From contig QPGO01000038.1 of assembly GCA_008632985.1 (NCBI GenBank), positions 25,939 through 89,938 of the forward strand: 64,000 nt of DNA, written 5' to 3'. Made by a program: the position numbers and the translations under genes. This DNA comes from Psammoneis japonica. Lineage: Eukaryota. Under the pieces are notes generated by a model that was not told the DNA's origin, did no database searches, and worked only from the letters and a program-made list of their open reading frames with translations. Below, one piece after another: positions 2,153 through 58,643 of the stretch. Numbering within the stretch: position 1 is the stretch's first letter; each line of letters opens with the position of its first letter.

Positions 2153-2199
2153 GTGACAATGGGGCACTTTGCAGCTTCCCCCCGTGCACCACAAACTGT

Positions 2200-6079: not shown

Positions 6080-6470
6080 TGAACAAACATGTTATTTCAA
6101 AGAAAACAAACGAAAACAAACATGTCATTTCAAGGAAAACAAACATGTCATTTCAACGAAAACAAACATGTGTTTTTAAGAAAAACAAACATGTCTTTTC
6201 AAGAAAAACAAACATGTCTTTTCAAGGAAAACAAACGTGTCTTTTCAAAAAAAAACAAACATGTCGTTTCCAGGAAAACAAACATGTCTTTTCAAGGAAA
6301 ACAAACATGTTGTTTCTAGGAAAACAAACATGTCTTTTCAAGGAAAACAAACGTGTCGTTTCAAGGAAAACAAGCACGTGGTTTCAAGGAAAACAAACAT
6401 GTCTTTTCAAGGAAAACAAACATGTCTTTTTGACAAAAACAAACATGTCATTTTTAAAGAAAAACAAACA
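6080..6470 (+). repeat. 23-bp satellite array
   Basis: Tandem (tc)ttttcaaggaaaacaaacatg units. Confidence 0.9.
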
Positions 6471-6474
6471 ACTC

Positions 6475-6800
6475 GGAGCATGCCAACAAAGCCTTGATGG
6501 CATTTTGGCACTCAACTCAGGCGAGCCATCCAGCTCAGGCCTGTGCCCAGGGCTCAAGGGCATCAACGCCTTTCAGTTTTCTTGATCTCCAACTCAGCAT
6601 CAGCCAATGCCCGCTTGACACAAAGGTCAGAGGACATGGCCCAGCGTGCCTTGCTTTCCAAGTCAGACAACTGGCACTTTCTGATCTGGGCGCCCAAGTG
6701 CTCCTTCGGCTCGCAGACACTTCTGTCCTTGAGTGTGCAGCCAGAGCTCATGCAACCCATGATCTTGATGTTGCTGACCACTGCCTGGGTTGTCACTCGG
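6475..6800 (-). mobile_element. Fragment of a second copia lineage (RT C-terminus)
   Basis: EPKEHLGAQI..WAMSSDLCVKRALAD..PLSPGHRPELDGSPEL; homologous to but divergent from the 8.4-8.6 kb RT. Confidence 0.7.
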
Positions 6801-9714: not shown

Positions 9715-10287
9715 GATGCAAGGGAGTTCCCCTTGAAGGACCGGCAAGCATCTTTTGTGATGATTGTGGTGTTGTGAAGAATGTGAGTGTGCACGAGTCG
9801 GTTTTGCGTGAGAAGCACAATGCCATCAACCGCCATGTTGTGCGAGAAGCGGTCGCAGCAGGAGTTGTTGGTGTTGGCAAGGAGGACACGAAAACAAACT
9901 TGGCAGATCTGCTTGCGAAAATGGTCACAGGAGAGCGGCGATGGAAGCTTTGCTCGTGTGTCTTTTGGCAATGTTCTGACACCAAGGCCAGGCACCTGTG
10001 GCTTGCACCCACGTGTCTCGGCCTCCCAAGCCAGCACGTCTGGTGGTTTAATTTGGGTTTTGTGGTTTGCCTCTCTGTGAGAGGATGTTGCAGGTTTAGA
10101 TGAATCGGCATTGTCGTTGCCGTTTCGCGGGGACCGAGTGAATCTGGATGGAGAAGCAAGAGAGGACAATGTTGTGATTGGTGGCTGGCTGGCACATGTG
10201 AATCGAGTGGTGCTCTGGCAACACACTCACAATCCAATCAGGTTTGGGTTTGAGTTGACAGTGTTGTGACTTTCCATCAGATGCAAG
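9158..10287 (+). repeat. 565-bp tandem duplication of the copia RNase H end and 3' region
   Basis: ggagttccccttgaaggacc at 9158 and 9723. Confidence 0.9.
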
Positions 10288-10342
10288 GCATCGTGCTTGT
10301 CCTTTCGTTGCATTGAGATTCACTCGGTTGCAAGGAAAACAA

Positions 10343-10602
10343 GGCCTGTTCCAGCTCCAGGTGCTCCGCGCGGGTTCGATTCCCATCATTTGGAAATTTG
10401 TGCATTTGGCACAGTTGACTTTTTCCAAATCCGTTTTTTGCCAAATCGAATGGTGAGTGTGCAATTTGCGTGCATTTTTGGGTGTGCACTCACCTTTTGA
10501 TTGTTGAAACAATCAAAATTGAAGGAGTCAATTGCGCTAAACTGCGCAGAAAATCGGCCTCTCGAGTGATAAAAAGCAGATCACCTGGAGCTGGAACAGG
10601 CC
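10343..10602. mobile_element. MITE family B (260 bp), 21-bp TIR, 4-bp TSD ACAA, inserted into a satellite unit
   Basis: GGCCTGTTCCAGCTCCAGGTG...CACCTGGAGCTGGAACAGGCC flanked by ACAA on both sides. Confidence 0.92.
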
Positions 10603-11645
10603 ACAAACATGTCTTTTCAAGGAAAACAATCATGTCTTTTCAAGGAAAACAAGCATGTCTTTTCAAGGAAAACAGTCATGTCGTTTCAAGGAAAACAAGC
10701 ACGTCATTTCAAGGAAAACAAACATGCATTTTTAAGCTGCAATGAAAACAAACATGTCTTTTCAATGAAAACAAACGTGATTTCAAGGAAAACAAACACG
10801 TCTTTTCAAGGAAAACAAACACATCTTTTCAAGGAAAACAAACATGTCTTTTTGAGGAAAACAAACATGCTGCACCAAGGAAAACAAACATGTCCTTTCA
10901 AGGAAAACAAACATGTCTTTTCAAGGAAAACAAACGTGTTGTTTCAAGGAAGGAAAAAACAAAATCTTTCAAGGAACACAAACATGTCTTTTTAATTTGC
11001 AAGGAAAACAAACATGTCATTTTAAAGAAAACAAATGTGTCTTTTCAAGGAAAACATGCGTGTCGTTCCAATGAAAACAAACATGTTGTTTCAAGGAAAA
11101 CAAACATGTCGTTTCAAGGAAAACAAACATGTCTTTTCAAGGAAAACAAAAGTGTTGTTTCAAGGAAGGAAAACAAACAACTTCTTTCAAGGAAAACAAG
11201 AAACATGTCTTTTTAAATTGCAAGGAAAACAAACATGTCTTTTCAAAGAAAACAAACATGTTGTTTCAAGGAAAACAAACATGTCGTTTCAAAGAAAACA
11301 AACGTGTTGTTTCAAGGAAAACAAACACATTGGTTCAAAGAAAACAAACATGTCTTTTCAAGCAAAACAAAAGTGTTGTTTCAAGGAAGGAAAACAAACA
11401 AGTCATTTCAACGAAATTGGAAAACAAACATGTCTTTTCAAGGAAAACAAACATGTTGTTTCAAGGAAAACAAACACGTCATTTCAAGGAAAACAAACAC
11501 GTTGTTTCAAGGAAAACAAACATGTCATTTCAAGGAAAACAAGCACGTCATTTCAAGGAAAAAAACATGTTCTTTCAAGACATGTTCTTTCAAGGAAAAC
11601 AAACATGCCATTTCAAAGAAAACAAACAAAGGAAAACAAACACGC
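10603..11645 (+). repeat. 23-bp satellite array
   Basis: Tandem units with higher-order variants shared with the 12.9-14.3 kb array. Confidence 0.92.
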
Positions 11646-12610
11646 ACTGGATTTGATCCGAAGGAACCAGTGAATGACGAATCTGTTTTCAATTCGAACG
11701 CGGGCTGGACCGAGTTTTACGGGGACATTGAGGAGGAGCTGCTGCCACGGGCACCAAAGCCTCGTGGCAACCCGACAAACATCCATGCTTTTGTTGATGC
11801 TGACCATGCAGGGAATGTCATCACTCGCAGGTCGCATGGTGGAATTCTGATGTTTGTCAATGAAGCGCCAGTGACATGGTTCAGCAAGCGGCAGAACACG
11901 GTGGAATCGGCGATGTTTGGAAGTGAGTTGGCTGCGATGCGGACTTGCAAGGAGTTGATTGTCGCTTTGCGTTGCAAGCTTTGCATGTTTGGAGCTCCCC
12001 TTGAAGGACCGGCAAGCATCTTTTGTGATGATCGTGGTGTTGTGAAGAATGTGAGTGTGCCTGAGTCGGTTTTGCATGAGAAGCACAGCGCCATCAACCG
12101 CCATGTTGCGCGAGAAGCGGTCACAGCAGGAACTTTTTGTGTTGGCAAGGAGGACACAGAAACAATCTTGGCAGATCCACTCACAAAAATGGTCACAGGA
12201 GAGCGGCGATGGAAGCTTTGCTCGTGTGTCTTTTGGCAATGTTCCGACACCAAGGCCAGGCACCTGTGGCTTGTGCCCACGTGTCTCGGCCTCCCAAGCC
12301 AGCATGTCTGGTGGCTTAATTTGGGTTTTGTGGTTTGCCTCTCTGTGAGAGGATGTTGCAGGTTTAGACAAATCGGCACCGTCACCGCCGTTTCGCGGGG
12401 ACCGAGTGAATCTGGATGGAGAAGCAAGAGAGGACAATGTTGTGATTGGTGGCTGGTTGGCACATGTGAGTCGAGTGGTGTTCCAGCAACACACTCACAA
12501 TCCAATCAGGTTTGGGTTCAAGTTGACAGTGTTGTGACTTTCCATCAGACGCAAGGCATCGTGCTTGTCCTTTCGTTGCATTGAGATTCACTCGGTTGCA
12601 AGGAAAACAA

Positions 12611-12870
12611 GGCCTGTTCCAGCTCCAGGTGCTCCGCGCGGGTTCGATTCCCATCATTTGGAAATTTGTGCATTTGGCGCAGTTGACTTTTTCCAAATCC
12701 GTTTTTTGCCAAATCGAATGGTGAGTGTGCAATTTGCATGCATTTTTGGGTGTGCACTCACCTTTTGATTTTTGAAACAATCAAAATTGAAGGAGTCAAT
12801 TGCGCTAAACTGCGCAGAAAATCGGCCTCTCGAGTGATAAAAAGCAGATCACCTGGAGCTGGAACAGGCC
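12611..12870. mobile_element. MITE family B copy (260 bp)
   Basis: Same TIRs, TSD and flanks as 10343-10602. Confidence 0.92.
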
Positions 12871-14300
12871 ACAAACATGTCTTTTCAAGGAAAACAATCA
12901 TGTCTTTTCAAGGAAAACAAGCATGTCTTTTCAAGGAAAACAGTCATGTCGTTTCAAGGAAAACAAGCACGTCATTTCAAGGAAAACAAACATGCATTTT
13001 CAAGCTGCAATGAAAACAAACATGTCTTTTCAATTAAAACAAACGTGTCGTTTGAAGAAAGGAAAACAAACATGTTGTTTCATGACATGTTCTTTCAAGG
13101 AAAACAAACATGTCATTTCAAGGAAAACAAACATGTTCTTTCAAGGAAAACAAACATGTCTTTTCAAGAAAAACAAACGTGTCGTTTCAAGGAAAACAAA
13201 CACGTCATTTCAAGGAAAACAAACATGTCATTTCAAGGAAAACAAACATGTCATTTCAAGGAAAACAAACATGTCATTTCAAGGAAAACAAACATGTCCT
13301 TTCAAGGAAAACAAACATGTCCTTTCAAGGAAAACAAACATGTCATTTCAAGGAAAACAAGCATGTCTTTTCAAAGAAAACAAACATGTCTTTTCAAGGA
13401 AAAAAACACGTCATTTCAAGGAAAACAAACACGTCTTTTCAAGGAAAACAAACACATCTTTTCAAGGAAAACAAACATGTCTTTTTCAGGAAAACAAACA
13501 TGCTGCACCAAGGAAAACAAACATGTCCTTTCAAGGAAAACAAACATGTCTTTCAAGGAAAACAAACGTGTTGTTTCAAGGAAGGAAAAAAACAAAATCT
13601 TTCAAGGAACACAAACATGTCTTTTTAATTTGCAAGGAAAACAAACATGTCATTTTAAAGAAAACAAACGTGTCTTTTCAAGGAAAACAAGCGTGTCGTT
13701 CCAATGAAAACAAACATGTTGTTTCAAGGAAAAAAAACATGTCGTTTCAAGGAAAACAAACATGTCTTTTCAAGGAAAACAAAAGTGTTGTTTCAAGGAA
13801 GGAAAACAAACAACTTCTTTCAAGGAAAACAAGAAACATGTCTTTTTAAATTGCAAGGAAAACAAACATGTCTTTTCAAGGAAAACAAACATGTTGTTTC
13901 AAGGAAAACAAACATGTCGTTTCAAAGAAAACAAATGTGTTGTTTCAAGGAAAACAAACATGTCGTTTCAAAGAAAACAAACACGTTGGTTCAAAGAAAA
14001 CAAACATGTCTTTTCAAGCAAAACAAAAGTGTTGTTTCAAGGAAGGAAAACAAACAAGTTCTTTCAACGAAATTGGAAAACAAACATGTCTTTTCAAGGA
14101 AAACAAACATGTTGTTTCAAGGAAAACAAACACGTCATTTCAAGGAAAACAAACATGTTGTTTCAAGGAAAACAAACACATCATTTCAAGGAAAACAAGC
14201 ACATCATTTCAAGGAAAAAAACATGTTCTTTCAAGACATGTTCTTTCAAGGAAAACAAACATGTCATTTCAAAGAAAACAAACAAAGGAAAACAAACACA
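12871..14300 (+). repeat. 23-bp satellite array
   Basis: Tandem units. Confidence 0.92.
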
Positions 14301-14305
14301 CACTG

Positions 14306-16335
14306 GATTTGATCCGAAGGAACCAGTGAATGATGAATCTGGTTTTAATTTGAACGCGGGCTGGACCGAGTTTTACGGGGACATTGAGGAGGAGCTGCCG
14401 CCATGGGCACCAAAGCCTCGTGGCAACCCGACAAACATCCACGCTTTTGTTGACGCTGACCATGCAGGGAATGTCGTCACTCGCAGGTTGCATGGCGGAA
14501 TTCTGATGTTTGTCAATGAAGCGCCAGTGACATGGTTCAGCAAGCGGCAGAACACGGTGGAATTGGCGATGTTTGGAAGTGAGTTGGCTGCGATGCGGAC
14601 TTGCAAGGAGTTGATTGTCACTTTGCGTTGCAAGCTTCGCATGTTTGGAGCTCCCCTTGAAGGACCGGCAAGCATCTTTTGTGATGATCGTGGTGTTGTG
14701 AAGAATGTGAGTGTGCCTGAGTCGGTTTTGCGTGAGAAGCACAATGCCATCAACCGCCATGTTGCGCGAGAAGCGGTCGCAGCAGGAACTTTTTGTGTTG
14801 GCAAGGAGGACACAGAAACAATCTTGGCAGATCCACTCACAAAAATGGTCACAGGAGAGCGGCGATGGAAGCTTTGCTCATGTGTCTTTTGGCAATGTTC
14901 CGACACCAAGGCCAGGCACCTGTGGCTTGTGCCCACGTGTCTCGGCCTCCCAAGCCAGCATGTCTGGTGGCTTAATTTGGGTTTTGTGGTTTGCCTCTCT
15001 GTGAGAGGATGTTGCAGGTTTAGACGAATCGGCACTGTCATTGCCGTTTCGTGGGGACCAAGCGAGTCTGGATGGAGAAGCAAGAGAGGACAATGTTGTG
15101 ATCGGTGGCTGGTTGGCACATGTGAGTCGAGTGGTGTTCCAGCAACACACTCACAATCCAATCAGGTTTGGGCTCAAGTTGACAGTGTTGTGACTTTCCA
15201 TCAGACGCAAGGCATCGTGCTTGTCCTTTCGTTGCATTGAGATTCACTCGGTTGCAAGGAAAACAAGGCCTGTTCCAGCTCCAGGTGCTCCGCGCGGGTT
15301 CGATTCCCATCATTTGGAAATTTGTGCATTTGGCGCAGTTGACTTTTTCCAAATCCGTTTTTTGCCAAATCGAATGGTGAGTGTGCACTTTGCATGCATT
15401 TTTGGGTGTGCACTCACCTTTCGATTTTCGAAACGATCAAAATTGAAGGAGTCAATTGCGCCAAACTGCGCAGAAAATCGGCCTCTCAAGTGATAAAAAG
15501 CAGATCACCTGGAGCTGGAACAGGCCACAAACATGTCTTTTCAAGGAAAACAATCATGTTTTTTCAAGGAAAACAACATGTCTTTTCAAGGAAAACAGTC
15601 ATGTTGTTTCAAGGAAAACAAGCACGTCGTTTCAAGGAAAACAAACATGCATTTTTGAGCTGCAATGAAAACAAACATGTCTTTTCAATGAAAACAAACG
15701 TGTCGTTTCAAGAAAGGAAAACAAACATGTTGTTTCAAGACATGTTCTTTCAAGGAAAACAAACACGTCATTTCAAGGAAAACAAACATGTTCTTTCAAG
15801 GAAAACAAGCATGTCTTTTCAAGAAAAACAAACGTGTCGTTTCAAGGAAAACAAACACGTCATTTCAAGGAAAACAAACATGTCATTTCAAGGAAACAAA
15901 CATGTTTTCAAGGAAAAAAACATTTTCAAGGAAACAAACATGTTTTTCAAGGAAAAAATTCTTCAAGGAAAACAAACATGTCTTTCAAGAAAACAAACAT
16001 GTCTTTTCCAAGAAAACAAACATGTCATTTCAAGGAAAACAAACATGTCATTTCAAGGAAAACAAACACGTCTTTTCAAGGAAAACAAACATGTCTTTTT
16101 GAGGAAAACAAGCACGTCCTTTCAAGGAAAACAAGCACGTTGTTTCCAGGAAGGAAAACAAACATGTTGTTTCAAGGAAGGAAAACAAACATGTTGTTTC
16201 AAGGAAAACAAACACGCTGTTTCAAGGAAAACAAACATGTTGTTTCAAGAAAAACAAACATGTCATTTCAAGGAAAACAACAAGGTTGTTTCAAGGAAAA
16301 CAAACAAGTTGTTCAAAGGAAAACAAACATGTTTT
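14306..16335 (+). repeat. Segmental unit, copy 3 (copia RNase H/3' end + MITE B + satellite 15527-16335)
   Basis: Colinear with 11649 onward. Confidence 0.85.
15267..15526. mobile_element. MITE family B copy (260 bp)
   Basis: Same TIRs, TSD and flanks as the other two copies. Confidence 0.92.
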
Positions 16336-16369
16336 TTTGCAGCCATCTTTTTGACTTTTTTGATGCCAG

Positions 16370-17260
16370 AGTGATTGGAGCTCATTTTGAACCCCCTGAC
16401 GGCCAATTTTGCTTCCGAGTCTGTGACCGAGGATGCACAGATGATGCGTCCAATCATGTCAATGACTTCCAAGCAAGTCCTCGACCTTTGGCGTTTGATC
16501 TGTCCTTTTTTTTGCAACAGGACAATCAACTCTGGTGTGATTTGCTGGGTGCAGCTGGGCATGAACTTGAGCTGCCAAGGTGTTCTTTCCACGCCATTGA
16601 GTGGGATTTCACTGAGTGCAGAGAGCCACGCATTCGCCCTCACCATGAAGACCTGGTTGTTGAAATCTTCTCTGCAGACAGGCCCAAGTCCCGCTCCAGC
16701 ACTCAACTCTCAGCTTGTGCTCTGCACAAAACCCTTGGACACTGCTTGGCTCCAATTGGTGCCCAGAAGACTCAGTTGGAGAAACTCCAACACAAGAGTG
16801 ACGCCGCAGCTCTTTTCCTTTGATCTTGTTCACTTGATCATGCAGAAACATGGAGATGCTGCCACGCATGTCATCTCTCCTTGATGACCTGTGTTCTCCC
16901 TGACTTGACCTTTCTCCCCAAACAGCTGCTCGCTGCTCAACAGAAAGCAATGCACAGGTCACATTTGTCAAATGTGAGTGCAGCTGAAACACAAAACAAC
17001 TCATCTTGTGTGGCCCACAAGCTCTTGGCGGCACCGGCTTTTGATCGCCAGACATCAAACAAGGAGCTGCTCAATTGCAAGTGCTGCTCAAGCATTCCAG
17101 AGGTGTCAGACATCTTCATCTGGGAGAGGATCAACCCCACAAATTGCCGCACATTGCAGTCTCATGGATCCAACTGAACTTGGGGACCGGTGCGAGTTTC
17201 TTGTGGGGCGCAGATGCTGTTCTCCTGCACATGGAATCGTGTTGGTTTGCTTCCGTCAGT
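16370..17260 (+). mobile_element. Degenerate non-LTR retrotransposon RT C-terminal fragment
   Basis: GAHFEPPDG..GCTDD (degenerate G[FY]xDD RT motif)..QLWCDLLGAAGHELELPRCSFH..HKTLG. Confidence 0.7.
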
Positions 17261-20340: not shown

Positions 20341-20730
20341 CAAATTGGAAATGCAGGACAACCAGGACCGCAGCATCAACTTGGCATTTGTTGACAATGA
20401 ATGTCAAAAAGCCGCAGCGATGTGTCATTGTTGATTGCAAAGAGTGGACTGAATTCATTGTGTTTGTCACTTCAAACAATGAAGCAAGCACACAACGTGA
20501 AAATTGTCAACGACATTGATTGTCAGCTGTTGCAGTGAACAAAGGCACATGCCAAATGGGAAAAGAGGGGGGCGCTCACACAGTTAAAGTTGTTTTGTTG
20601 CAGACAAAAAGAGGTCTCCACAGTTGAAAAAAATCACCCATCACAGATTAAAATTTGTTGCCAGCTGCACAACTGACAAGGTTTGAAACCATGAAAATTT
20701 CATCTGTCAAAGAAATGAAAATCACAATGA

Positions 20731-21495
20731 AAAGGCAAGGCTGGATCACCATGTTGCACCCTCTGATGGACCCCGCAGCATCAAATTTTCTGGTGTCATC
20801 TGTGCTGCGTTCTGTGCTGTGATTTTGATTTGACAATCTTGTGAGCACCCCAAAGAACCATTTGCTTTGCTTTTTTCTTGGGATGACCAAAACCAAATTT
20901 GTCTTTTCTTTTCTGCAAAGGCTGCTGACTCATGATGCATTTCTTTAGGATCTGAGCCAACTTTTGCTCAACCAAGCACAAATGCTCCTGCATCGTGGTG
21001 CTGACCAAGACACCGTTGACCAAATCTGTGGTCAATTTGATCAGCTCCTCACAATGCCAACTTTGGACATGCCAACTTTTGAGCAAAGCTCAGCACACCA
21101 ACTTTCTGGCAAAACTTGGCATGCCAACTTTGGGGCAAAACTTGGCACACCAACTTTGAAGCAACACTTGGCATGCCAACTTTGAAGCAACACTTGGCAT
21201 GCCAACTTTGCTGCAAAACTTGGCATGCCAACTTTGAAGCAAAACTTGGCATGCCAACTTTGGAGCAAAACTTGGCACCCCAACTTTGGGGCTCAGCTTG
21301 GTTTTGCAATGGGATTCCCCAAAATTCCCTGGAATTGCCACCTTTTGCCATGCTTTTCCATGGGAAGCATGAGCTCCCGGGGAGTTGCCACAAATGCTGC
21401 CTTGTCATTGCACATGCTGTTTGAAGAATGACCATTGAGAGCTCAGTTTTGTTTGCTTGCCAAACATCTTGCATGCCAACTTGTGTTGACTTGTG
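20731..21495 (+). repeat. Dispersed repeat, copy 1 (copy 2 at 33927-34725)
   Basis: Direct alignment starting aaaggcaagg..ggatcaccatgttg. Confidence 0.88.
21054..21290. repeat. 26-bp tandem array with palindromic core TTGGCATGCCAA
   Basis: Unit ccaactttgaagcaacacttggcatg, roughly 9 copies. Confidence 0.88.
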
Positions 21496-23090: not shown

Positions 23091-23840
23091 ATCTTGATCT
23101 TTTCATGGCAACAATGAGAGGAGTGGCACTGTTCGACAGTGCAGCTGTCGTTTGGGTCGTGTTGAGACAGCCAGGCACTCCATTTTTCTCTGTGACATTG
23201 CACAAATTGTTGTCAGCAACATTGAAATTTGAAAACATGTTCATGTGCAACAACGAATGGTCCAACTTGCTTTTTGACATGGTTGTCATTGCGTTTGAAT
23301 GGAGATGACATCCTGCATTTTGACAGCAAATAAAAAGCGCAATGTTCATTGTGGATGCCAGATAAAAAATCAAAATGCAGGTGCGTCATGCCTGCAAGAA
23401 TCATCCCAATCTGGAAGACAATGCAATGTTTGCCAGTTTCCGCCATTTTTTGCGTGTTGTTCTTTTTTTCCCTTCTCATCCACAAGACAAGGACGACGAG
23501 CATGAGGCTTGATGAAGGCCCTGTCAACATTGTCTGATTTACAATGGATGGAAACCCTCTTCTCTTTCCCGGTTGTGGCCAAAGTTTTTTGCAAATGGCC
23601 TGCCATTGGAGACACTCGCCGACATGTTGCTCAGTTGCCCAAGAGTTGCAAACCCAAGATCCAATCCCAGATCAAAGCGACATTGCTGCCACAACAGAGG
23701 GGCCACCCAAAGAAAGTGGCAGTTCTTCCTCTTCGTCCTCTGATGATGACGAATCCCATCCGAGGCAATCAACTCGCAGCAGATTCCCAAGATCTTCAAT
23801 GAGTGATCGAGCAGCAGCCCTTTGTTCCCCTCCCCTGATG

Positions 23841-24236
23841 GACACGTTCCAGATGCAGGTGGGAATCCATGTGACATTGGGCCCGCAGACTTCTACGTGC
23901 GAGCTCCGCAGCAAAATTGTGCGGCAATTAAAATGTCAATGATCGCCAACAGAAAATGAGGCAATTTTGCGAATGCACAAACTCGCACATGATTGAAGTG
24001 CATCATTTTTTACTTGGCCAGTTACATTCTTCAGACATTGAAGAATGCAACTGGCGCATTGTTGTCTCCACAAATTTGTCATGTGAAACGTCTGGGGCTT
24101 CGCAAAACAGCGAGTCTGGACAATTTTTTTTAAATGTCACATGCAGAAATCCACGTGCGAAACATGCGACGGATGACAAAAATCATTGTTGTCACATGTC
24201 AGTGCTGCGAGCTCCCACCCAGGGCTGGAACGCGTT
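23841..24236. mobile_element. MITE family A subfamily 1 (396 bp), TSD GATG; inverted relative to 805-1200
   Basis: GACACGTTCCAG...CTGGAACGCGTT with GATG on both sides. Confidence 0.92.
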
Positions 24237-24456
24237 GATGACGCACTGCACGGAATGGATGACATGTCCTCCATTTCATCAAACCACAGCACGCAAGGAG
24301 CGGAACTTTTGGCAATGAACGATTTGGATGTTGGCAGTGTTCAATCCTTTGCTGCAGTGTTGGACGTGACAATGGAGGAGGAAGAGGACATCAACGATGA
24401 GGATCAATGTTCGGGGACCAGGCATGATGCTCCTGCAGAAGAGGCCTTGGCTTCTA

Positions 24457-27182
24457 CCCCATGCACGCACTGGGCGCTGAAAAGAAGATGTGTTGCGACT
24501 TTGTCGACGCGTTCCAGCCCCAGGCGGGACTCCTTGTGACATTGGGCCCGCAGAATTCCACGTGCGAGCTCCGCAGTACGAGAATTTAATCAATGGATGT
24601 GTTTGTCTTCAACATCAAATAAACGGCCAAGTTTGTGGTGCAATTGTGCCTCTTGCCACTCGACGTTTTTGCAACTTCACCTGCCCTGCGCGATTCTTAA
24701 GACATTGTAGAATCGCGCTGCAACAAAAAATGTCAAAAGTTGTTGGACGGATCGCTCAACAAGCGCACCGTAAAATGACACAAAATGTCAAAAAAATCAC
24801 GTAGAAATCTACGTGCGCGACATGCGATGAGACTCAAAAAACTGTCGATGTCACAATTCAGCAGTGCGAGGTCCCACCTGGACCTGGAACGCGTCTGTCG
24901 TTGTGAAAATTGTGAGCTGGTTTAGAGCAGAGAAAGTGGGATCGTGCGAACAGGGAATCTTGCCAAATCCCCATTCGTTCGCATTTGGATCGCATCAAAT
25001 CAATCGTGCGTTCGCATTGTGGATTGTGCGAGTCAAGCCATCACGCGCTGTGCACGAGTGATGTCATCGTGTGGAATCACGCCACCATCGTGGGCCAGAC
25101 GATGGGCTGGTGTGCTTCACACGGATGCTCTCTTGGCGTCCTTCTGGAATTTCCTAAGACCCAGAGCCACGCCCTCCTGTGGTCGTGCTTCCCAGGTGCG
25201 CGTCAACAATGCCACGTTGTCACGCACAAGAGGCTTGTGCACGGTCTCGCCGTGTTGTCCAGTGGCGAGGCATGCTGCACACTCCCCCATGATCAGGGCC
25301 GTTAAGTGACAGGATGTCTTACTGGTGACAGGGTACAATCTGCCGTAGATTGTACGTAGCTATCAGCGCTCCGTTCTGGACACGCAACGTGCCGTTGTCA
25401 CATACACGGACAACTCTGGCGGGTCCTGCATAGCTGTCAGAACCGTATTTAGAGGATTGTTCCTGTTTGATAAGTGCCAATTGCCCTACGGTATGTTGAT
25501 ACTCCTTGCGTTTCTGATTTTCACGCTTGTTATTTTGATTGGATAAGCTTCTGCTTTCTGGTTTCTATGTGCTTCCACTTAGTACGATGAGCAATAGATA
25601 AAACCGCATCGCGTCCGAAGACCAATTGCATGGGACTTGCACGCGTGGTCGTGTGTACCGTAGCTCTAATAGCGAAGGGCAATGGACATTTCCGCACGTG
25701 TCTCACCTGGATGACACAGTGTCTCGTGGCACCATTCAGTTAGCGGAACCTGCAATGACTGCGGCACTGCGATTTTGTCCTTATGACAGATTAACTGTCG
25801 TGATGACCCTCCCCCACGATGCGCGCGAATGGAGTGGTCGGACGAGTCCTTGGCTCGTGAGAGTAGGCGCTTGTCCTTTTGTTGTTCTTTTTGAATGCGC
25901 TTGAAGCTGACAGGCAGAGATGCATCGTCTTGCGCGTCTGCATTAAAAGCTTCATGCAAAGGACGACTCGATGGAGTGCCTTGTGCACCCAGATTGGCCT
26001 CGGAAGGCAAGCTGGGTGCCAGCCGAAGGCGACCAAGAGCGCCAGTGACTGGGTTGTGGGCACCCTCAACACAGCGTGATCAATTCTGGGACCGCATTCT
26101 TCGCATGTCAACCGCCAGCACATGACGCGCTCGGCATTGAACACTTTGCACGTAAGATTTTTATGATCAGTGCATGTGAGCACACAATGACCCAGGAGAG
26201 TCGTTCGAAATTCTTTCAACGTCTCCACAATGGCGAGCAATTCTCTCTCCGTTGTTGCACAATTTAATTGCGCACTGTTGAGCTTTCTGCACAAAAGGCG
26301 ATGGGTTTGTCATCTTGGGACATGGCTGCTCCCAATTGATGTTTAGAGGCATCGGCATGTGTCTCAAAGGGTTCATTAAAATCAGGATGTGATGACAAAA
26401 CATCATCCGACATCACCCGTTTGACGGTTTCGAACGCCTCGTCTTCAACGGACGTCCACTCCCACTTAACAGTCTCGCTTGCGAGTCGTGTTGGCGGAGC
26501 CAAGACTTCAGAACATCTGATCCACGCGTCACGGCAGCAGCTCACCATGCCAACAAATGACCGCAGGTCGCGTTTGTTGGCTGGGGTCGCGATTCGCTCA
26601 ATGGCATCGACTTTGTTGGGCATTGGTCGCACTCCGTCTCTGTTGACCAGACAACCCAAGTGTTCCAATTGGGTTTGACAGAAATGAGATTTGTCGGTCC
26701 TGCCAACATTTCACAGTTTTGTTTCTGCAGATTTCGTTGCAACATCACTGTGCCCCATGCATGCACTGGGCGCTGAAAAGAAGATGTGTTGCGACTTTGT
26801 CGTTGTGAAAATTGTGAGCTAGTTTAGAGCAGAGAAAGTGGGATCGTGCGAACAGGGAATCTTGCCAAATCCCTGTTCGTTCGCATTTGGATTGCATCAA
26901 ATCGATCGTGCCTTCGCATTGTGGATCGTGCGAATCAAGCCATCACGCGCCATGCACGAGTGATGTCATCGTGTGGAATCACGCTGCCATCGTGGGCCAG
27001 ATGATGGGCCAGTGTGCTTCACACGGATGCTCTCTTAGCATCCTTCTGGAATTTCCTAAGACCTGGAGCCATGCCCTCCTGTGGTCGTGCTTCCCAGGCA
27101 CGCGTCAACAATGCTGCGTTGCCACGTGCAAGAGGCTCATGCACGGTCTCGCCGTGTTGTCCAGCAGCAAGGCACACTGCAC
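24457..27182 (-). mobile_element. Internally deleted Ty3/gypsy LTR retrotransposon with two 430-bp LTRs and TSD TTCTA
   Basis: LTRs at 26753-27182 and 24457-25280 (430 bp after removing the MITE); PPT tgggggag next to 25281; RT end HLGCLV..GVRPMPNKV; RNase H HADASKHQLGA, TERELLAIVE, TDHKNL; integrase WCHETLCHPG and C-terminus QLVFGRD..NGTLRV; TTCTA at 24452-24456 and 27183-27187. Confidence 0.9.
24506..24895. mobile_element. MITE family A subfamily 2 (390 bp), TSD TGTC, inside the gypsy 3' LTR
   Basis: GACGCGTTCCAG...CTGGAACGCGTC; empty site in the sister LTR at ~26795-26810. Confidence 0.93.
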
Positions 27183-30100
27183 TTCTACTCCCTCTTTGAC
27201 AAATCTTGACGGAGCTTGTGCAGAGTTGTGCAAGAAGCTCATTGACACACGTGGTGCTCCCCTGCAATTGCACGACTGCATTGTTGATTTCATTGAGAGG
27301 CACACTGGCAACAGCAACATCAAGCTTGGTGCAGTTCTGCCAAGGAGAAAAGAGTTGATGCGCACCTTAAACAAGCATTTCCCTCTTCCACCCAGCGAGT
27401 CTATTCCTGTCACTCTAGAAACAAAAAATTTCAAACCGGTTTGCCAAAACGAGTGTCAGTGCCAAGATGGGATTTCACAAAGGTTTGGGAACAGTTTTTA
27501 CTCGATCCTCACCTGTGGTGCAGCAGAGAGAATGTGGCCAATCCAGACAATCCTTTTGGGAAGTGCAAAGCGAAGGGACCGGATGACAAGTGCCTTTTGG
27601 CAGGTGAGTGGTGCAGGCGCAGTTACGAAGAACGGACAACTGACCCGGAGAAACAATTTCTCGAGTGCAATGTCATTTACATTGACAAGACTGGCAGGAC
27701 ACAAGGGATGGGATCACATTGCTGAGAACCAGTGATCATGACCTCTGCACATGTTGCCTTCAACAAATGGTCAGACAAGAGTGTCTGGAAACCAATTGGT
27801 TGTCTCCCGGATTTGGAAAAGATGTCGTCATCTGCGGCAAAGAATCTCTCAAACAATCGCAAGGCGGAGAAGGGACGCTCGTCAAGAGACTGCCACACTT
27901 GCTTGCGTGTCATTTTGGAGCCACTTTTGGAAGTCATGAGAAAAGGAGGCATGAAAACATGCGTGCGACGAGGGGATGAGATGCGACACCTCCACGCAAT
28001 CCCACTGATCGTTCTCATCATGGGAGACACAAAAAGCGGCGACTGTCTCGTTGGACGATGCAGAGGTCACAACTGTCGTCAACGTTGCTGTCATTTTTGC
28101 CTGACTGGCTTCAACAAACTGGACGACCCATGGATTGAATGCGAGTTCATCTGAGGACTGGATCTCCACCAAGTGCAAACTAAGGCCAACAACGACAACA
28201 GATCAGACCAAGAAAGGAAGCACTGGTTGGGCATCTTGCATTGCCTCAAGCAACACAACGCACCAACCAACTGTCTTTTTGAGGCAGACTTTGGCACACA
28301 ACCATGCGGCATTGCCCTTGCAACAGCAAGCGACATGATGCATCTCTTTGAAAATGCACCTTGAAAAGGGCAATCAATTCATTTGTAGACAGCATGACAC
28401 CTGTGGTTGCAAGTGAGGTGGACAGCATGGTGGAAAGGATTTTCAGCAATCACCGCTCAACTTGCAAAGCATCCTTTTTGCGAACAAACTTCAAAGGAGG
28501 AGCAACGTCGCTCACCTTCCTCAACTCTCACCACTGGGCTGGAATGGCTTTTGTTTTCTACCTTCTCCTGTCAACCAGCGAGGGACGAAACGCATGTGAG
28601 TCATGCTTCCTTGACGAGGATGCAGACGAACCCATTGTTCCAGAGAATCGCAAGACACCCAAAGCAAACTTTGAGAGTTGCTGCCAACCCAGTGAGCACT
28701 TGGACGACTCTGACGATGAAAGGTCGGAGGAGTCCAAAGAGGGTGACTGGGACGAAAATGAGGATGAGAAAGAGGAGAGTGAGGCTGAGGATGGTGACGA
28801 CAACCAAAACAAGAAAAAATGCAAGGGAAAAAGACTCAACTGCAGCATCCGGCAATTCATTCAATTGCTCGAGGACCTTCTTGTCTTCCACGCATGGTGC
28901 AGGCTGGGCAATCCACCCATCACAAGCGTGACTCCCAGTTCATCTGTTCAGAAAACAAACAAGAAAATCCGTCTCCTCATTGACCGGATGGTGCAATTCG
29001 TCCCGCGAACAGAAGGATGCGGGTGGAAGCTTCAAAAGCTTCATGAAACACTCCATCTCCCAGTGTTTCTTTGTTGTCACCGACATGCGATGAACTTTGA
29101 CGCAGGCTTGGGGGAATGTCTCTTGAAAGACTTTTTCAAGCTGCCGTCATCTGCTGCACAACAACGCAACCTCGACAGTTTTCTGAAGCAGGTCGTGTCG
29201 TGCATGGAGGACCAAATGAGGCTCAACGCCGCAATTTCAGCTGACAGTTGGATTTTGCCAACTGGGAAAAAGGAATCATCAAGAGTCAGGATGGACAATC
29301 ACACGCTGGGAGGAAGTGCGTTCACTCTCACCTGCAACCGAGGGATCGGCGCTGTGACATTTGAGTGGAACAGTGAGCATGCTCATTGCCAAGTTCGTCC
29401 GGTGTTGCCAAACTTCATGTTGGAAAAGTGGGAGGATTGTGTTGGTGAAGACAGTGAAAATGCACACCTGACTTGTAAGACAGAGTTTTACAATGCAAGC
29501 GGGAGGGATGCGCACTGTGCACACCCCGATTTCAAAAGCGAAGGACCATGGCATGACTTTGCCCATGTGACCTTTGGCACACGAAAGGGCGATCAACAGT
29601 TTCCCTCCCGTTTGCTGTGTTTCTTCGAACAGGAAGACACAGGATCGATTTTTGCAGTTGTCCATCCAACCACTTGTCAAGCTGACCAGAGAACTGTGAG
29701 GCAACGGCATCAGCACACAGACTTGGTCAGTCGCTGGCAGCTTGATCACAAACGAAACAACTGGCTTTCAATGCCTGAGAAGACTCAGCACTCACCCAAG
29801 TTACGTGTTGTCCCCACAGAAGCAATTGGGGACAATGTTTTGGTTTGTGAAGAATGTCCAGGAGCAGCAGAAGCACAAGAAAAGGCCCTATTTGTTTGGG
29901 CCACACAGGACAGAAGGAAGTGTTGGTCAGATTTGTTTCTAAAACTGGATGCGCACATCAATCCATCATTCACTCACAGTGTGTGCATTTTTAGAGCAAT
30001 TGCTTCCTCACAGATTCTATGCAGTGTCCACTTGCACGGTCCATCTAGTCATCCTGCGCCATGAAATGTTCCCTGGCAGCCACAATCGCCTGCTGAAAGT

Positions 30101-30950
30101 CGGCGCTGTGGTCAGGCTGGTTGACAGCCACCAATTGTGCCTCAATTTGCAATGCCAGCTCATGGATTTCTACATGTGCGTTAAGGTGCGTGAAGAACAT
30201 GTGGGCACCTTCAAGTGACGCATGCAAACAATCATGAAGAAACATTCGGAAATGGGGACAGCACAGAGAGAAGTCAGAAACATGGATCCAAAACAAAGCA
30301 ACACAAGATGAAGGCAACGGCGACGGGATCGATGAAAAGAAGGATTCGGATGGAAAGATGCCGGAGACAGTGAAAACAGGTGGTGCCAAGACAAAGAAGG
30401 AAGAGAAAAACAGGATGGGAAAAATGAAGAAAGAGAAAAAGAAGCAGACGACACGACGTCAAGAGGGGAGCAGCGATGCAATTCTGCGTTTCGAGGGACC
30501 TCTTCCTCTCGATGATGTTCACCCAAATGCAAGAAATGCAGTGTGGCTTTTTTGGAACGGTGACGAGGAAACATCCAACACGGCAGCGGCACGTGCATTT
30601 GAAATTCTTGCAAGAGAGCGGACAAGACACATGGAATGAAAAGGACGATGCGGATGAACAGGCCAATTGGAGCACAGTTGTTGATTGAACAATCAGTGCA
30701 CACTTTACATGATGAAAATTTCATTGCATGCAATTGCAACGTTTGGCTTGTCATCAAAGATCGTCAGTTGTTGTGAAAAAGGCTGAGCATGAAAATTAAA
30801 AAGCATCTGTGTTCAAACATGAAGAACAGCAGGAGATCAACAATTGGCCAAACAACAAAAACCATCATGTGCAGACAAGCAGATTTCACAACATGGCAAC
30901 GCATTTTTGTCATGTGTGCAGATGTTGCGACATCGTGCACTCTGATGTGT

Positions 30951-31476
30951 CATCTCATGTTGACTTTTGTTGACTCGTGTTGACTTTGGTTGACTTGTTT
31001 TGACTCTGCCCAGTTGCATGTGTGTGATGCCCATGCAAAGCTGTCTGCATGCATGATGTTTGTCACATGCGACTGGTGGCAAGCAAGGTGCCAGACTGTC
31101 AGTTTTGTCCAGAGACACTTCTGCACTCATTGATGATTTGTGTTAACTCATGTTGACTCATGTTCCCTTTTGTTGGCTTGTGCTTGCTTTTGTCAACTTT
31201 TGTTGACTTGCGTTGACTCACTTTTGCTTGACAAGTTTTGCGACCACTTTTGGCACATTGGCATTTCACAATTTGGTTGATGATTTTGGCAAGAAAAGAG
31301 AAAGTTGACACTCAGGACAAACCCATTGGGGGCACATGCAAATGCCCACAGCAACAAAAATTTAGCCAAGGAGGGCCCTGGAAGAGAAGGGGGAGGTGGC
31401 ACAGGTGGTGCCATTGGCTCTGGAGTTGGGCATGCTGTGTTGAAAATTCCACAGACAAAGGAGTTGCCTTCGACGA
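30951..31476 (+). repeat. Dispersed repeat, copy 1 (copy 2 at 34727-35248)
   Basis: Direct alignment; contains short (t)gttgact repeats. Confidence 0.85.
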
Positions 31477-31499
31477 TGCGCAAACACGATCACTTGTGC

Positions 31500-32900
31500 T
31501 GCAACCAGGGAACAGTGAGTTTGATGGAGGCCAGCCATTGTCTTGGACATTGGCGTTTGCATCTGTGGCAAGAAGAGTTGGTTGATGCAGATGGATCTGT
31601 CGCCAAGTCTTCAGCGGATTTGATGCCATGTGCCAACGGGTTGAAGACAATCACTCCCCTTCCAGTGGGAGGTTTCAGTGCACCTTTGCATTGGTCATGT
31701 GAACAGGGACAGTCAGCAGGAGCCAGAAAACGAAAAGCGGTGTCGAGCACATTCCAGGGTGCACAAGCCTTGTGTGGACATCTGCCAGAAACAGGAGGAA
31801 CGTTGATTGCACCAGCGCCATTCACCAGCGTTCCTTCTTCCCGTGAACTGTTGGCAACAGCAGAAGGATCCTCGGACATGCTAAAATGGTTGCTCGCATG
31901 TGCTTTGTGACAAAACTGACAATGAGGCAAGCATTGACAGAACAGTTTCCATCTGCAGAACAGGCATGTTCCCAAAACATTGAACAGGTGCCACTGTGGT
32001 CTCCAACACGAAATGTGCAGGAACGTTCAGGCCAATCCACACAAACACTGAGTTTGCCAGCTTCAACCCACACAAGCTTCTGAAGGCCGCCATGGCAAAA
32101 CCAATGACATTCTTCAGACAACGACTGCAGCTTGCACTCAAATGTGTTGTCTCCTCAACTTCATGATTTTCTCCCTTGGACGACATTGCCACAAAGTGGG
32201 TGTGGCATCCACAGGAAGAATTGGGAGGAGGGCAGCAGGTGTGCATGTCAAGCCACACTTGATTGTGTGGCTGCTTTGTGCCATTGGGATTGAAGTCATC
32301 ACACCATTCTTGCACCCACAGATGCAACACAAAGCCAGACGCGTTCCAGGTCTAGGTGGGACCTCGTACCACTGAACTGTGACATCGACAGTTTTTTGAA
32401 TCACGTCGTATGTCGCGCACGTAGATTTCTACGTGATTTTTTCGACATTTTGTGTCATTTTACGGTACACTTATTGAGCGATCCGTCCAACAACTTTTGA
32501 CATTTTTTGTTACAGCGCGATTCTATAATGTCTTAAGAATCGCGTAGGGCAGGCGCATTTGCAAAAACGTCGAGTGGCAAGAGGCATAATTGCCACAAAC
32601 TTGGCAGTTTATTTGATGTTGAAGATAAATGTGTCCATCAATTAAATTCTCGTACTACGGAGCTCGCACGTAGAATTCTACGGGCCCAATGTCACACGGA
32701 GTCCCACCCAGGACTGGAACCCGTCGCCATTGACATCTTCTTTGAGTTAGATGAACAAGGAATGTGCTGCCGGTGTGCATGACATGGCAGGTTGGGAATC
32801 TTGAACAATGACGTCTGCATCAAAAAAGAACTTTTCAAATTGTGCGGCTTTTCCAACTCATTTGCAACCACGTCTTCAAACAAAACACACAGGAATGACT
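31500..32900 (-). mobile_element. Degenerate fragment of a second Plavaka/CACTA-like transposase, interrupted by a MITE
   Basis: EWCDDFNPN..VW..PP..AMSSKGENHEVE and DWPER..GDHSG resemble diatom transposase motifs. Confidence 0.45.
32338..32725. mobile_element. MITE family A subfamily 2 (388 bp), TSD GCCA; least mutated copy
   Basis: GACGCGTTCCAG...CTGGAACCCGTC with GCCA on both sides; reverse complement of 24506-24895. Confidence 0.93.
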
Positions 32901-33884
32901 GCCACTGTCGGTTTTCCTGGGAACAGGATGAGGCAAATTTGGCACAATGGCACGTTTGCTGGAGAAATGCAACATTTCAAAATCTTTCACAGAAGTGGGG
33001 ACACGAGTCCGATGAAAAATGGACAAGTCTGGATCATGGCTGTTTGTGGCTTGCAGCGTGCATTCTGCCCCAACAATTCACGTTGATTGGACTCAATTGG
33101 AGGCATCCTCTGAATGTGGTTGAACAGAGCAAAAATTTGCATTTTGCTCTGATTGTCTTGCACACAGAGCATGTCGCTCTGACTGTGGCTTGAACAGAGC
33201 AAAGCCACAATTGATTTTTTGGCTCTTGTGAACGGAGCAAAATGCTCTGTTTTTTTTTGTTTGGAGCAAAAACAACTCATTTAGAGTGACTCTCATTTGC
33301 AGTGGCAGTGGTGTGTCTTCCCAGACTCAAACGGCACACTTGGTCCACTTTTCACAGTGTTTGCCATGTCTGAGTCTCTGTTGCTTCCAGGAGGTCACAA
33401 TGGCCATCACCGTCATCCCCACGTCCACATGGTTGTGTCCAGAAACTGCAACAACTCAGAACTCCGCTGTCCAGATGACATGTGGTGAGAAGATTCATCT
33501 CAAGGGCATGAATTCCACCCTTCAATGGTGCCTGCAGGCTTTTCACACTGGGTTTCTCTGTCAACCACACACTCGTGGCATGTTGCCCAGTTGCCCGGCC
33601 ACATGGAATCTGCCATGGCTGATGTTGTCTCACCTGCATGCAAAATTGAGGGCCAACCAATGCCAACAATTTCCTTCAGACACAGACATCAAAGATTGCC
33701 AACAAACACTGTGGACAACAGCTGCCCATCCCAACACCTGAGCCCAAATCACTGCCCAAGCCCTGCCCACCTTGGCACCAGCCTTGGCTCTCACAACTTC
33801 CTCTCCCTTTTTCTCTCCCTCTTTGACCCCAACCCCAATGCTGGCCCTGAGACCCCCAACCCCCAAACTCCAACTCTGCCCCCC

Positions 33885-33925
33885 NNNNNNNNNNNNNNNN
33901 NNNNNNNNNNNNNNNNNNNNNNNNN
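33885..33925. other. Assembly gap (41 N)
   Basis: Run of n. Confidence 0.99.
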
Positions 33926-33926
33926 A

Positions 33927-35248
33927 AAAGGCAAGGCCGGATCACCATGTTGCGCCCTCTGATGGACCCCACTGCATCAATTTTTCTGGTGTCATCTGTG
34001 CTGTGTTCTGTGCTGTGACTTTGATTTGACAATCTTGTGAGCACCCCACAGAGCCATTTGCTTTGCTTTTTTTCTTAGAACAACCAAACTAAATTTGTCT
34101 TTTCTTTTCTGCAAAGGCTGCTGACATCCTTGCTGCCACCAGAAGAGGCAAGCTCTCCCTCATGAAGCATTTCTTTAGGATCTGAGCCAACTTTTGCTCA
34201 ACCAAGCACAAATGCTCCTGCATCATGGTGCTGACCAAGACACCGTTGACCAAATCTGTGGTCAATTTGATCAGCTCCTCACAATGCCAACTTTGGACAT
34301 GCCAGCTTTTGAGCAAAGCTCAGCACACCAACTTTCTGGCAAAACTTGGCATGCCAACTTTGGGGCAAAACTTGGCACACCAACTTTGAAGCAACACTTG
34401 GCATGCCAACTTTGAAGCAACACTTGGCATGCCAACTTTGCTGCAAAACTTGGCATGCCAACTTTGAAGCAAAACTTGGCATGCCAACTTTGGAGCAAAA
34501 CTCGGCACCCCAACTTTGGGGCTCAGCTTGGTTTTGCAATGGGATTCCCCAAAATTCCCTGGAATTGCCACCTTTTGCCATGCTTTTCCATGGGAAGCAT
34601 GAGCTCCCAGGGAGTTGACACAAATGCTGCCTTGTCATTGCACCCACTGTTTGAAGAATGACCATTGAGAACTCAGTTTTGTTTGCTTGCCAAACATCTT
34701 GCATGTTGATTTGTGTTGGCTTGTGTCATCTCATGTTGCTTTTGTTGACTCGTGTTGACTTTTGTTGACTTGTTTTGACTCTGCCCAGTTGTTTGTGTGT
34801 GGCACCCATGCAAAGCTGTCTGCATCTGTGATGTTTGTCACATGCGACTGGCAGCAAGCAAGGTGCCAGACTGACAGTTTGTCCAGAGACACTTCTGCAC
34901 TCATTGATGACTTGTGTTAACTCATGTTGACTCACACTCCCTTTTGTTGGCTTGTGCTTGCTTTTGTCAACTTTTGTTGACTTGCATTGACTCACTTTTG
35001 CTTGACAAGTTTTGCGACCACTTTTGGCACATTGGCATTTCACAATTTGGTTGATGATTTTGGCAAAAATCAGAAAGTTGACACTCAGAACAAACCCATT
35101 GGGGGTGCATGTAAATGCCCACAGCAACAAAAAGTCAGCCAAGAAGGGCCCTGGAAGAGAAGGAGGAGGTGGCACAGGTGGTGCCATTGGCTCTGGAGTT
35201 GGGCATGCTGTGTTGAAAATTCCACAGACAAAAGAGTTGCCTTCAATG
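33927..35248 (+). repeat. Composite of repeat copies: 20731-21495 (with the 26-bp array at ~34284-34520) joined to 30951-31476
   Basis: Direct alignment; junction at ~34726. Confidence 0.82.
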
Positions 35249-58464: not shown

Positions 58465-58643
58465 TTTAACGTCTTTAACATACGTTTAACGTCCGAACAA
58501 ACCAACCCTTGAATTTTTAACGGCCGAACAATCGTGGTGCACAAAAATCTCAAAATGGAAACCATCCAAGCAGCCGTTGTTCGGCCGTTAAAACTAAGAG
58601 GGTTCGTTTGTTTGGACGTTAAACGTACGCTAGAGACGTTAAA
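58465..58643. repeat. Foldback inverted repeat (~65-bp imperfect arms), MITE-like
   Basis: tttaacgtc..tttaacgtccgaacaaac..tttaacggccgaacaa versus ttgttcggccgttaaaa..gtttggacgttaaa..gacgttaaa. Confidence 0.7.

Follow-up and report, generated by a model that had tools for sequence, protein, structure and literature searches.

Context-graded loss of TA dinucleotides by A:T-to-G:C change in transposon- and satellite-rich DNA of a diatom contig

The 64,000-nucleotide stretch analyzed here (the window; contig QPGO01000038.1, Psammoneis japonica) carries two inverted copies of a miniature inverted-repeat transposable element (MITE), A and B, that differ at a series of sites where B reads TA and A reads TG or CA. 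The question raised by this locus is which of the two states is ancestral, and what kind of process, with which preference for the neighboring bases, has turned one into the other. The data establish that TA is the ancestral state, that the change is specific to this dinucleotide and obeys a flanking-base rule, that the domains affected have sharp borders, and that different copies received unequal doses. The best explanation overall, which we regard as probable, is a TA-specific, strand-symmetric and context-graded A:T-to-G:C mutational process that is limited to certain domains.

24506 to 24895, forward strand: MITE copy A, 390 nt, partly purged of TA, with 8 TA and a TA observed/expected ratio (O/E) of 0.32. 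It lies at the exact outer edge of a long terminal repeat (LTR); its terminal inverted repeat (TIR) starts GACGCGTTCCAG and its 4-bp target-site duplication (TSD) is TGTC, at 24502-24505 and 24896-24899.
32338 to 32725, reverse strand: MITE copy B, 388 nt, nearly unpurged, with 21 TA and a TA O/E of 0.73. Its TIR likewise starts GACGCGTTCCAG, and its TSD is TGGC on the minus strand (32334-32337 and 32726-32729).

The two copies are 89.8% identical across about 390 to 400 nt, and a scripted count over their alignment gave 31 transitions, 8 transversions and 2 gap columns within the element. The first-pass annotation of this DNA, working from a hand alignment, had counted about 13 sites at which a TA of B corresponds to TG or CA in A, with no site of the opposite kind, about 11 of the 13 being TAY to TGY or RTA to RCA (Y, pyrimidine; R, purine). 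The script returned 13 to 0 and 11 of 13, the exceptions being CTAC to CCAC and CTAG to CTGG. Three of the 11, being RTAY, are compatible with either product, which leaves 8 of 9 YTAY or RTAR sites as the informative count (binomial p = 0.02). At a further five dinucleotides one copy reads CA where the other reads TG, and the pair of sequences that the annotation had singled out, ggaTGTGttt against ggaCACAttt, was found among them.

The pair lies in the larger of two TA-poor domains, which adjoin a block of genes.

1 to 36700: TA-poor domain containing Copia and Gypsy remnants, MITEs, and 23-bp and 26-bp satellites.
36800 to 58999: gene block, with a TA O/E of 0.46 to 0.93 (0.93 in one intergenic kilobase).
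59000 to 64000: second TA-poor domain, bordered on the left at about 59.0 kb and containing a TA-normal island at 62400-62800.

Both TA-poor domains mostly contain 0 to 9 TA per 1-kb bin, with a TA O/E of about 0.05 (bins mostly 0.00 to 0.19), and their CA and TG O/E values are 1.3 to 2.0. The only bins of 1-36.7 kb with more TA are those of the TA-normal islands and of copy A. The borders at about 36.7 and 59.0 kb are sharp at a resolution of about 200 nt, and the gene block between them (36.8-59 kb) served as the internal baseline for TA survival.

The comparison of A with B is by itself insufficient to give the direction of the change, which the annotation had read as TA to TG or CA. This direction is supported by conserved tyrosine codons, by other copies of the repeats, by the CA/TG sites and by a mass balance of tetranucleotides. 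The tyrosine codons belong to remnants of retrotransposon genes.

6961 to 9419, forward strand: Copia-type pol remnant, with RVT_2 at 8013-8651; conserved Tyr codons now read TGY or CAY.
2160 to 3883, reverse strand: second Copia-type pol remnant; its conserved Tyr columns are TGT in 4 of 4 cases.

Twenty-six homologues of these remnants were aligned back to the window, and a column was taken as conserved when Tyr was present in at least 70% of at least five aligned homologues. The 28 independent columns so defined now read TGY (14) or CAY (11) in 25 cases, the remainder being one TAC, one CGC and one AAG. In an open reading frame (ORF) of 212 amino acids encoding the reverse transcriptase (RT), all 11 conserved tyrosines have been replaced (6 Cys, 4 His, 1 Glu), which leaves no Tyr at all against 5.4% in the homologues; the tyrosine of what we take to be the catalytic box now reads His. 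Related Copia loci, the best 80 metagenome matches, show TA O/E values from 0.47 upward (median, 0.70), and none of them is purged of TA, which indicates that the family was not TA-poor originally. These loci are used as a baseline only, one of the two search patterns having held intact Tyr, and they have no bearing on other diatoms.

Other copies of the MITEs were found among the contigs of run X1. These have TA at at least three of the positions where A and B differ as CA versus TG, namely 32639 (60% of depth), 32633 (32%) and 32631 (33%), and at 32639 the other copies read TTAA. The difference places considered on 23800-33800 were 40 of 510 rows. The ancestral ggatatattt that the annotation had proposed is borne out to the extent that X1 contigs carry TA at both 32633 and 32631; no single copy is shown with the two together.

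The CA/TG sites, at which two repeats with a common TA would have been resolved on opposite strands, point in the same direction. In 11 non-redundant repeat pairs there are 55 such sites, against 17.5 expected from CpG decay as calculated from the CG/CG and CG/TG-CA counts of each pair (Poisson p = 6e-13). For A and B the count is 5 against 0.13, and for the LTR pair that adjoins copy A it is 11 against 0.27. Together with the 13 to 0 asymmetry of the MITE pair, this is far beyond chance.

24896 to 27182: LTR-like element, with direct repeats at 24896-25280 and 26798-27182 that are 91% identical and have 11 CA/TG sites and 2 shared TA.
25791 to 26294, reverse strand: Gypsy RT_RNaseH remnant inside the LTR-like element.

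The mass balance shows where the missing TAs went: YTAY and RTAR were lost at 20 to 22 per kb, YTGY and RCAR were gained at 22 to 25 per kb, and RTGR and YCAY were gained at only about 4 per kb.

The annotation had further proposed a trinucleotide preference for TAY or RTA, and had predicted that loss would differ among NTAN contexts. Both proposals hold. When tallied in the TA-poor domain relative to the gene block, TA survival is strongly unequal across contexts: 0.005 for ATAC/GTAT, 0.008 for ATAT, 0.02 for GTAC, 0.03 for ATAG/CTAT, 0.06 for ATAA/TTAT, 0.066 for CTAG, 0.08 for CTAC/GTAG, 0.14 for GTAA/TTAC, 0.35 for CTAA/TTAG and 0.58 for TTAA. Four RTAY are left in the TA-poor domain against 244 in the baseline, and YTAR makes up 99 of the 172 surviving TAs (58%) against 176 of 912 (19%) in the gene block (Fisher p = 4e-16 for RTAY and 3e-23 for YTAR). 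The claim that survivors are mostly YTAR is therefore correct for the surrounding domain and incorrect within the pair itself, where the eight TAs retained in both copies comprise 2 YTAR, 4 RTAR, 1 RTAY and 1 YTAY. Of the survivor tetramers that had been named, TTAA and CTAA/TTAG stand, while CTAG enjoys no protection. In the TA-normal islands RTAY accounts for 20% of the TAs, as in ordinary DNA.

The preference is graded in the order T ≥ C > G >> A at the base 3' of the adenine, and is not a simple distinction of pyrimidine from purine. An additive model in which the A of each strand is lost at a rate set by its 3' neighbor fits all ten classes, with fitted k(+1) values of 2.6 for T, 1.7 for C, 1.0 for G and 0.23 for A (likelihood ratio against a single rate, 212; 3 degrees of freedom). 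When the 80 unpurged Copia loci were used as the baseline instead, the values were 2.8, 1.8, 0.86 and 0.42, respectively (likelihood ratio, 219). Survival alone cannot separate a rule at position +1 from one at position −2, because these are complementary descriptions of one site, but the choice of product can. From the class balance, the outcome was TAY to TGY or RTA to RCA in 84 to 87% of YTAY and RTAR sites, and this is the cleaner test because CpG decay would add equally to both product classes. Among single informative sites the rule is obeyed in 16 of 19 (p = 0.002), made up of 8 of 9 sites in A/B and 8 of 10 pyrimidine-preceded Tyr codons. Purine-preceded Tyr codons gave 6 TG and 9 CA, as expected if both strands are favored. 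The excess of products over the gene block was +21 per kb for TGC, +23 for TGT, +9 for TGG and +3.5 for TGA, figures to be read with the CGN losses being unbalanced and the baseline imperfect.

These observations would be accounted for if A:T were converted to G:C at 5'-TA-3' in those parts of the sequence that are rich in transposons and satellites, the adjoining gene block being left untouched. Either strand of a TA could be struck, giving TG or CA, and one TA present in two copies would then come to differ between them, as TG versus CA. The rate would be set by the base 3' of the affected A, with T ≥ C > G >> A. At such rates RTAY would vanish first, YTAY would mostly become YTGY and RTAR mostly RCAR, and TTAA together with TTAG/CTAA would last longest. 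The MITE copies would then serve as a record of exposure to the purge.

As the annotation had claimed, the dose differs between the copies. Counting shared TAs, TAs present only in B and CA/TG sites as 26 inferred ancestral TAs, A has lost 18 (69%) and B has lost 5 (19%), with 5 sites lost in both copies against 3.4 expected if the losses were independent. The 300-nt flanks of B, which are rich in CA and TG, have lost nearly all of their TA (0 and 1 remaining), and the LTR pair adjoining A is almost fully purged. Copy B is an unpurged island, exactly as long as the element, and was most likely inserted after most of the purge. Both LTRs begin TGTCGTTGTG, and the right TSD of A is formed by the first 4 nt of the left LTR, so that A probably inserted at the edge of the LTR element after this had arrived. 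The simplest order of events is the LTR element, A, most of the purge, and B. The two LTRs, identical when inserted, now differ at 11 CA/TG sites and share only 2 TAs; the purging of both direct repeats followed insertion. In the tandem 2.65-kb units described below, paralogous Tyr sites share changed codons (TGC in three units, CGC in four) and the units also differ from each other at many CA/TG sites, which shows that the process ran both before and after the duplications. The stretches at 31.1-32.1 kb and 32.8-33.8 kb are purged despite far lower summed contig depth, whereas the abundant copy B is the least mutated. This suggests that targeting is based on domains and is not triggered by duplication.

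Several observations weigh against the direction and the rule proposed here. They involve two further MITEs.

23841 to 24236, forward strand: MITE copy C, of a related family with termini common to A and B; TSD GATG, TA O/E 0.18.
805 to 1200, reverse strand: MITE copy D, 94% identical to C; TSD TGCC.

Six of the A/B sites can be aligned with C and D. Three of these require a TA ancestor and three share the TG or CA of A, and because C and D match A there, plain parsimony would make the TA of B the derived state at three of the six. Such agreement is expected of parallel, context-driven change, though it is not independent proof of it. The 13 sites with TA in B are themselves not polarized by other copies in the X1 rows listed, since neither these sites nor any place for copy A is among them. 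As far as the bases alone tell, the T of 5'-RTA-3' on the opposite strand is just as good a candidate for the base affected. The effect of the preceding base in the Tyr codons taken alone is marginal (8 TG and 2 CA after a pyrimidine, 6 TG and 9 CA after a purine; one-sided p = 0.058). Finally, 44 CA/TG sites have conserved flanks, and their context classes depart both from the +1 model and from a model without preference (chi-square p = 1e-14 and 4e-4, respectively); six of the 44 are in a T..A context and may have come in part from TCGA.

The pairwise pattern of TA against TG or CA, with all changes in one copy, is also the exact signature of repeat-induced point mutation (RIP), under which B would have gained its TAs by C-to-T change at CpA/TpG and A would retain the ancestral bases. 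The agreement of C and D with A at three of the six alignable sites fits this reading as well. We nevertheless consider it very unlikely. The five CA-versus-TG sites of A and B cannot arise in this way, and other copies have TA there. The Copia Tyr codons were turned into Cys and His codons and not the reverse, and a whole domain that is nearly free of TA and rich in CA and TG, including the flanks of B, is the opposite of DNA subjected to RIP. The contexts of the TAs in B, moreover, resemble ordinary DNA, with the RTAY share seen in the islands. Decay of methylated CpG to TG or CA, combined with drift, would instead make the CA/TG excess while TA is low for unrelated reasons. This decay is clearly active in the domain, where 93 sites pair CG with TG or CA, 134 have CG in both copies and the CG O/E falls to 0.08-0.24 at 33-36 kb, and some CA/TG sites in the T..A context possibly derive from TCGA. 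As the source of the pattern it has hardly any probability: it predicts 17.5 of the 55 CA/TG sites and next to none of those in A/B and in the LTR pair, it would feed YTGY and RTGR equally where the gains are 22-25 and about 4 per kb, it cannot remove TA or make Cys and His codons out of Tyr codons, and the other copies at 32639, 32633 and 32631 carry TA and not CG.

A different chemistry would leave the same products, given that TAY to TGY is RTA to RCA when read on the opposite strand, from which the attacked base cannot be told. The target of an enzyme might be the thymine in 5'-RTA-3', for instance oxidized in TET/JBP fashion or hypermodified to a base that mispairs with G, or repair might be biased at the T:A of TpA, and adenine deamination would have no part in either case. 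This is unlikely: 5-hydroxymethyluracil opposite A is only weakly mutagenic, inosine is taken for G in each round of replication, and the T-A-pyrimidine preference resembles the loop context of TadA and the bias of TadA-derived editors. A systematic miscall of a modified base at TpA in heterochromatin, read as TG or CA in sequencing or assembly, would be expected to look region-specific, nearly complete and random with respect to strand, much as observed. It is nonetheless highly improbable. The X1 contigs reproduce the TA-poor sequence, with one contig of 429 nt matching 31517-31931 with a single difference, although X1 may be the assembly's own data. A scaffold gap of 41 N suggests, by inference only, that the assembly was scaffolded. 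The graded doses within one family and the changes that predate the tandem duplication fit inheritance, and the case published for the alga Bigelowiella natans rests on Illumina mutation-accumulation lines (Mettrop et al., bioRxiv 10.64898/2026.01.13.699255).

Two more general causes were weighed and set aside. Biased gene conversion is incompatible with AA, TT and AT still standing at O/E values of 0.85 to 1.28, and selection against TA with targets that are dead elements suffering Tyr-to-Cys and Tyr-to-His changes.

The agent of the A:T-to-G:C process at TA is most likely an enzyme, and by analogy the candidate is an adenine deaminase of the TadA/ADAT2 type acting on DNA, which would turn A into inosine that is read as G. 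The natural RNA loop context of bacterial TadA is U33-A34-C35, resembling the T-A-Y preference found here, and early TadA-derived base editors had a YAC bias. No match to a deaminase family was found among the 59 ORFs of the window that were scanned. The process would act as a genome defense against silenced foreign or repeated DNA.

The closest known system is that of B. natans. According to the preprint, the de novo mutations of two integrated viral regions were A to G or T to C in 230 of 231 cases, all of these at TpA, and the rate of TpA to TpG/CpA was about 6e-7 per site per generation, in some lines only. The genome has 124 clusters depleted of TpA and enriched in CpA and TpG, and an ADAT2-like protein is the candidate (10.64898/2026.01.13.699255). 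The likeness is close. Both here and there, the changes are almost exclusively A:T-to-G:C transitions at TpA that give TpG or CpA, discrete regions with TpA depletion and CpA and TpG enrichment lie beside normally mutating DNA, activity is uneven or episodic, and the DNA affected is foreign or selfish; reverse-transcriptase and DDE domains are enriched among the TpA-depleted genes of B. natans, which recalls the targets in the window. The window clears the thresholds given for the B. natans clusters (Rho TA of at most 0.43, CA+TG of at least 1.52) by a wide margin. There are differences as well. B. natans is a chlorarachniophyte, unrelated to a host whose genes have diatoms as their best named relatives. 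Its targets are giant-virus and virophage insertions, whereas here they are retrotransposon remnants, MITEs and satellites, and no viral genes were found in the TA-poor domain. Purging is near saturation here, with a TA O/E of about 0.05 against 0.45 in the nucleocytoplasmic large DNA virus (NCLDV) region of B. natans. The words "trinucleotide," "context" and "flanking" do not occur in the main text of the preprint, whereas a +1 rule is reported here, and the record is of de novo mutations in B. natans and fossil in this window. A literature search, in which subscription journals were thinly covered, returned no report of TpA purging in diatoms or elsewhere beyond this preprint.

Fungal RIP, as generally described, changes C to T at CpA and creates TpA and AT-rich DNA. 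The process proposed here resembles it in making dinucleotide-specific transitions in repeated or foreign DNA, in destroying coding capacity, in forming distinct domains beside genes and in being legible from dinucleotide indices. Its chemistry and direction are opposite, since TpA is destroyed and GC rises, and TA is nearly absent from the repeats where RIP in duplicated DNA would have created it. The dependence of RIP on duplication is not seen here either, the very abundant copy B being the least mutated. With ADAR and APOBEC the process shares deaminase-type, context-biased transitions in mobile elements. ADAR prefers a U 5' and a G 3' of the edited A. The 5' T preference found here matches the former, but the 3' order of T, C, G and A, with G only intermediate, does not match the latter. 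RNA or cDNA editing leaves its marks on a single strand, and in retro-copies only, whereas here both products occur in the same elements, both strands were hit in place, and a DNA transposon, satellites and spacers are included.

Taken further, this comparison suggests an "inverse RIP" in diatoms, or at least in this one: an enzyme-driven deamination of adenine in 5'-T-A-pyrimidine-3' within silenced transposon and satellite domains, with genes spared across borders of about 200 bp. Almost all TAs would be erased by it, and all Tyr codons and TAA and TAG stops along with them. The system would be ancient in the SAR (stramenopile, alveolate and rhizarian) lineages or would have spread among secondary algae, and the T-A-Y preference would point to a naturally occurring TadA/ADAT2-derived DNA editor. 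We put this wider reading forward tentatively, as a possibility somewhat short of an even chance. A chlorarachniophyte has already been observed in the course of acquiring the same signature.

This kind of system is already known from the single 2026 B. natans preprint; what is new here is a second host that is unrelated to the first, targets that are transposons and satellites, a purge at saturation, and a flanking-base rule in quantitative form. RIP was long seen as a fungal peculiarity, and its TA-directed counterpart dates only from the 2026 account of a single alga, which was based on mutation-accumulation lines and gave no rule for the flanking sequence. The preference T-A-T ≥ T-A-C > T-A-G >> T-A-A provides a benchmark for any candidate enzyme and makes the deaminase hypothesis directly testable, and MITE copies of different age constitute a natural dose series. 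Since independent copies converge on the same TG or CA, a majority consensus would understate ancestral TA, and both the building of transposable element consensus sequences and their dating would be misled in such genomes. Gene callers may over-predict in purged domains. A natural DNA adenine editor, if this is what acted here, would be of interest to the base-editing field.

The MITEs have the features of non-autonomous DNA transposons of this class: elements of about 390 nt, TIRs of 12 perfect nt (about 22 of 25 overall), 4-bp TSDs in A, B, C and D, and many related X1 contigs. Copy D is a true insertion, because a repeat paralogue at about 16699-16701 is uninterrupted at its insertion point and represents the empty site. 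The description of A and B as sisters in the first-pass annotation could not be substantiated. A total of 11,123 contigs of run X1 were placed on 23.8-33.8 kb at at least 80% likeness, with summed depth peaking over the MITEs, which makes A and B two members of a very abundant family. The TSDs of the four copies (TGTC, TGGC, GATG and TGCC) have no consensus; they may themselves have been altered by the purge, and a true length of 3 bp instead of 4 bp is conceivable. No autonomous partner of the MITEs was seen, and a metagenome scan with a 20-nt conserved MITE motif gave no matches. The 10-nt word AAGAAGATGT occurs near both copies, at 24483-24492 (14 nt upstream of A) and at 32741-32750 (7 nt upstream of B), which may reflect chance, a preferred target or an older element common to both places.

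Three islands of ordinary TA content interrupt the TA-poor DNA: copy B, the island at 62.4-62.8 kb (15 TA per 400 nt at 62400-62800), and the following.

25300 to 25800: TA-normal island in the LTR-like element, with 29 TA in 25200-25800.

The last of these is flanked by 15-nt direct repeats, ACACTCCCCCATGAT and ACCCTCCCCCACGAT, at 25279-25293 and 25806-25820; it may have been inserted later, or a younger copy may have converted this patch.

CpG depletion within the TA-poor domain varies, with a CG O/E of 0.08 to 0.24 at 33-36 kb and 0.33 to 0.57 at 16-22 kb, and the MITEs are CpG-rich (1.2 to 1.4). TpA and CpG are thus two hypermutable dinucleotides that both feed CA and TG here. There are 83 ORFs of at least 150 amino acids in the window, and 43 of the 47 further TA-poor-domain ORFs scanned have no family match; such mechanical lists are inflated because TAA and TAG are nearly gone from purged DNA. 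The long ORFs of the gene block encode a protein with six DEP domains, an IGPS-like protein and an amino-acid transporter. Among the 55 matches of the six-DEP protein, the entries named by organism are diatoms (Seminavis, Nitzschia, Bacillariaceae and Thalassiosira, at 32 to 52% identity) and one weak match from Chlamydomonas, and the protein collection searched held no near-identical entry. An imperfect palindrome of about 180 nt (58465-58643, 76% self-complementary) lies about 400 nt inside the right-hand border of the gene block at 59.0 kb. The 41-N gap, at 33885-33925, stands directly before a repeat at 33926-34125 whose partner is at 20730-20929, the assembly having apparently been scaffolded across a repeat here. 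Three tandem macro-units of about 2.65 to 2.8 kb each occupy 8811-16340 and combine a Copia pol fragment with long arrays of the 23-bp satellite, which is also present at 1-250 and 6070-6600; in these units a transposon fragment has been co-amplified with satellite DNA.

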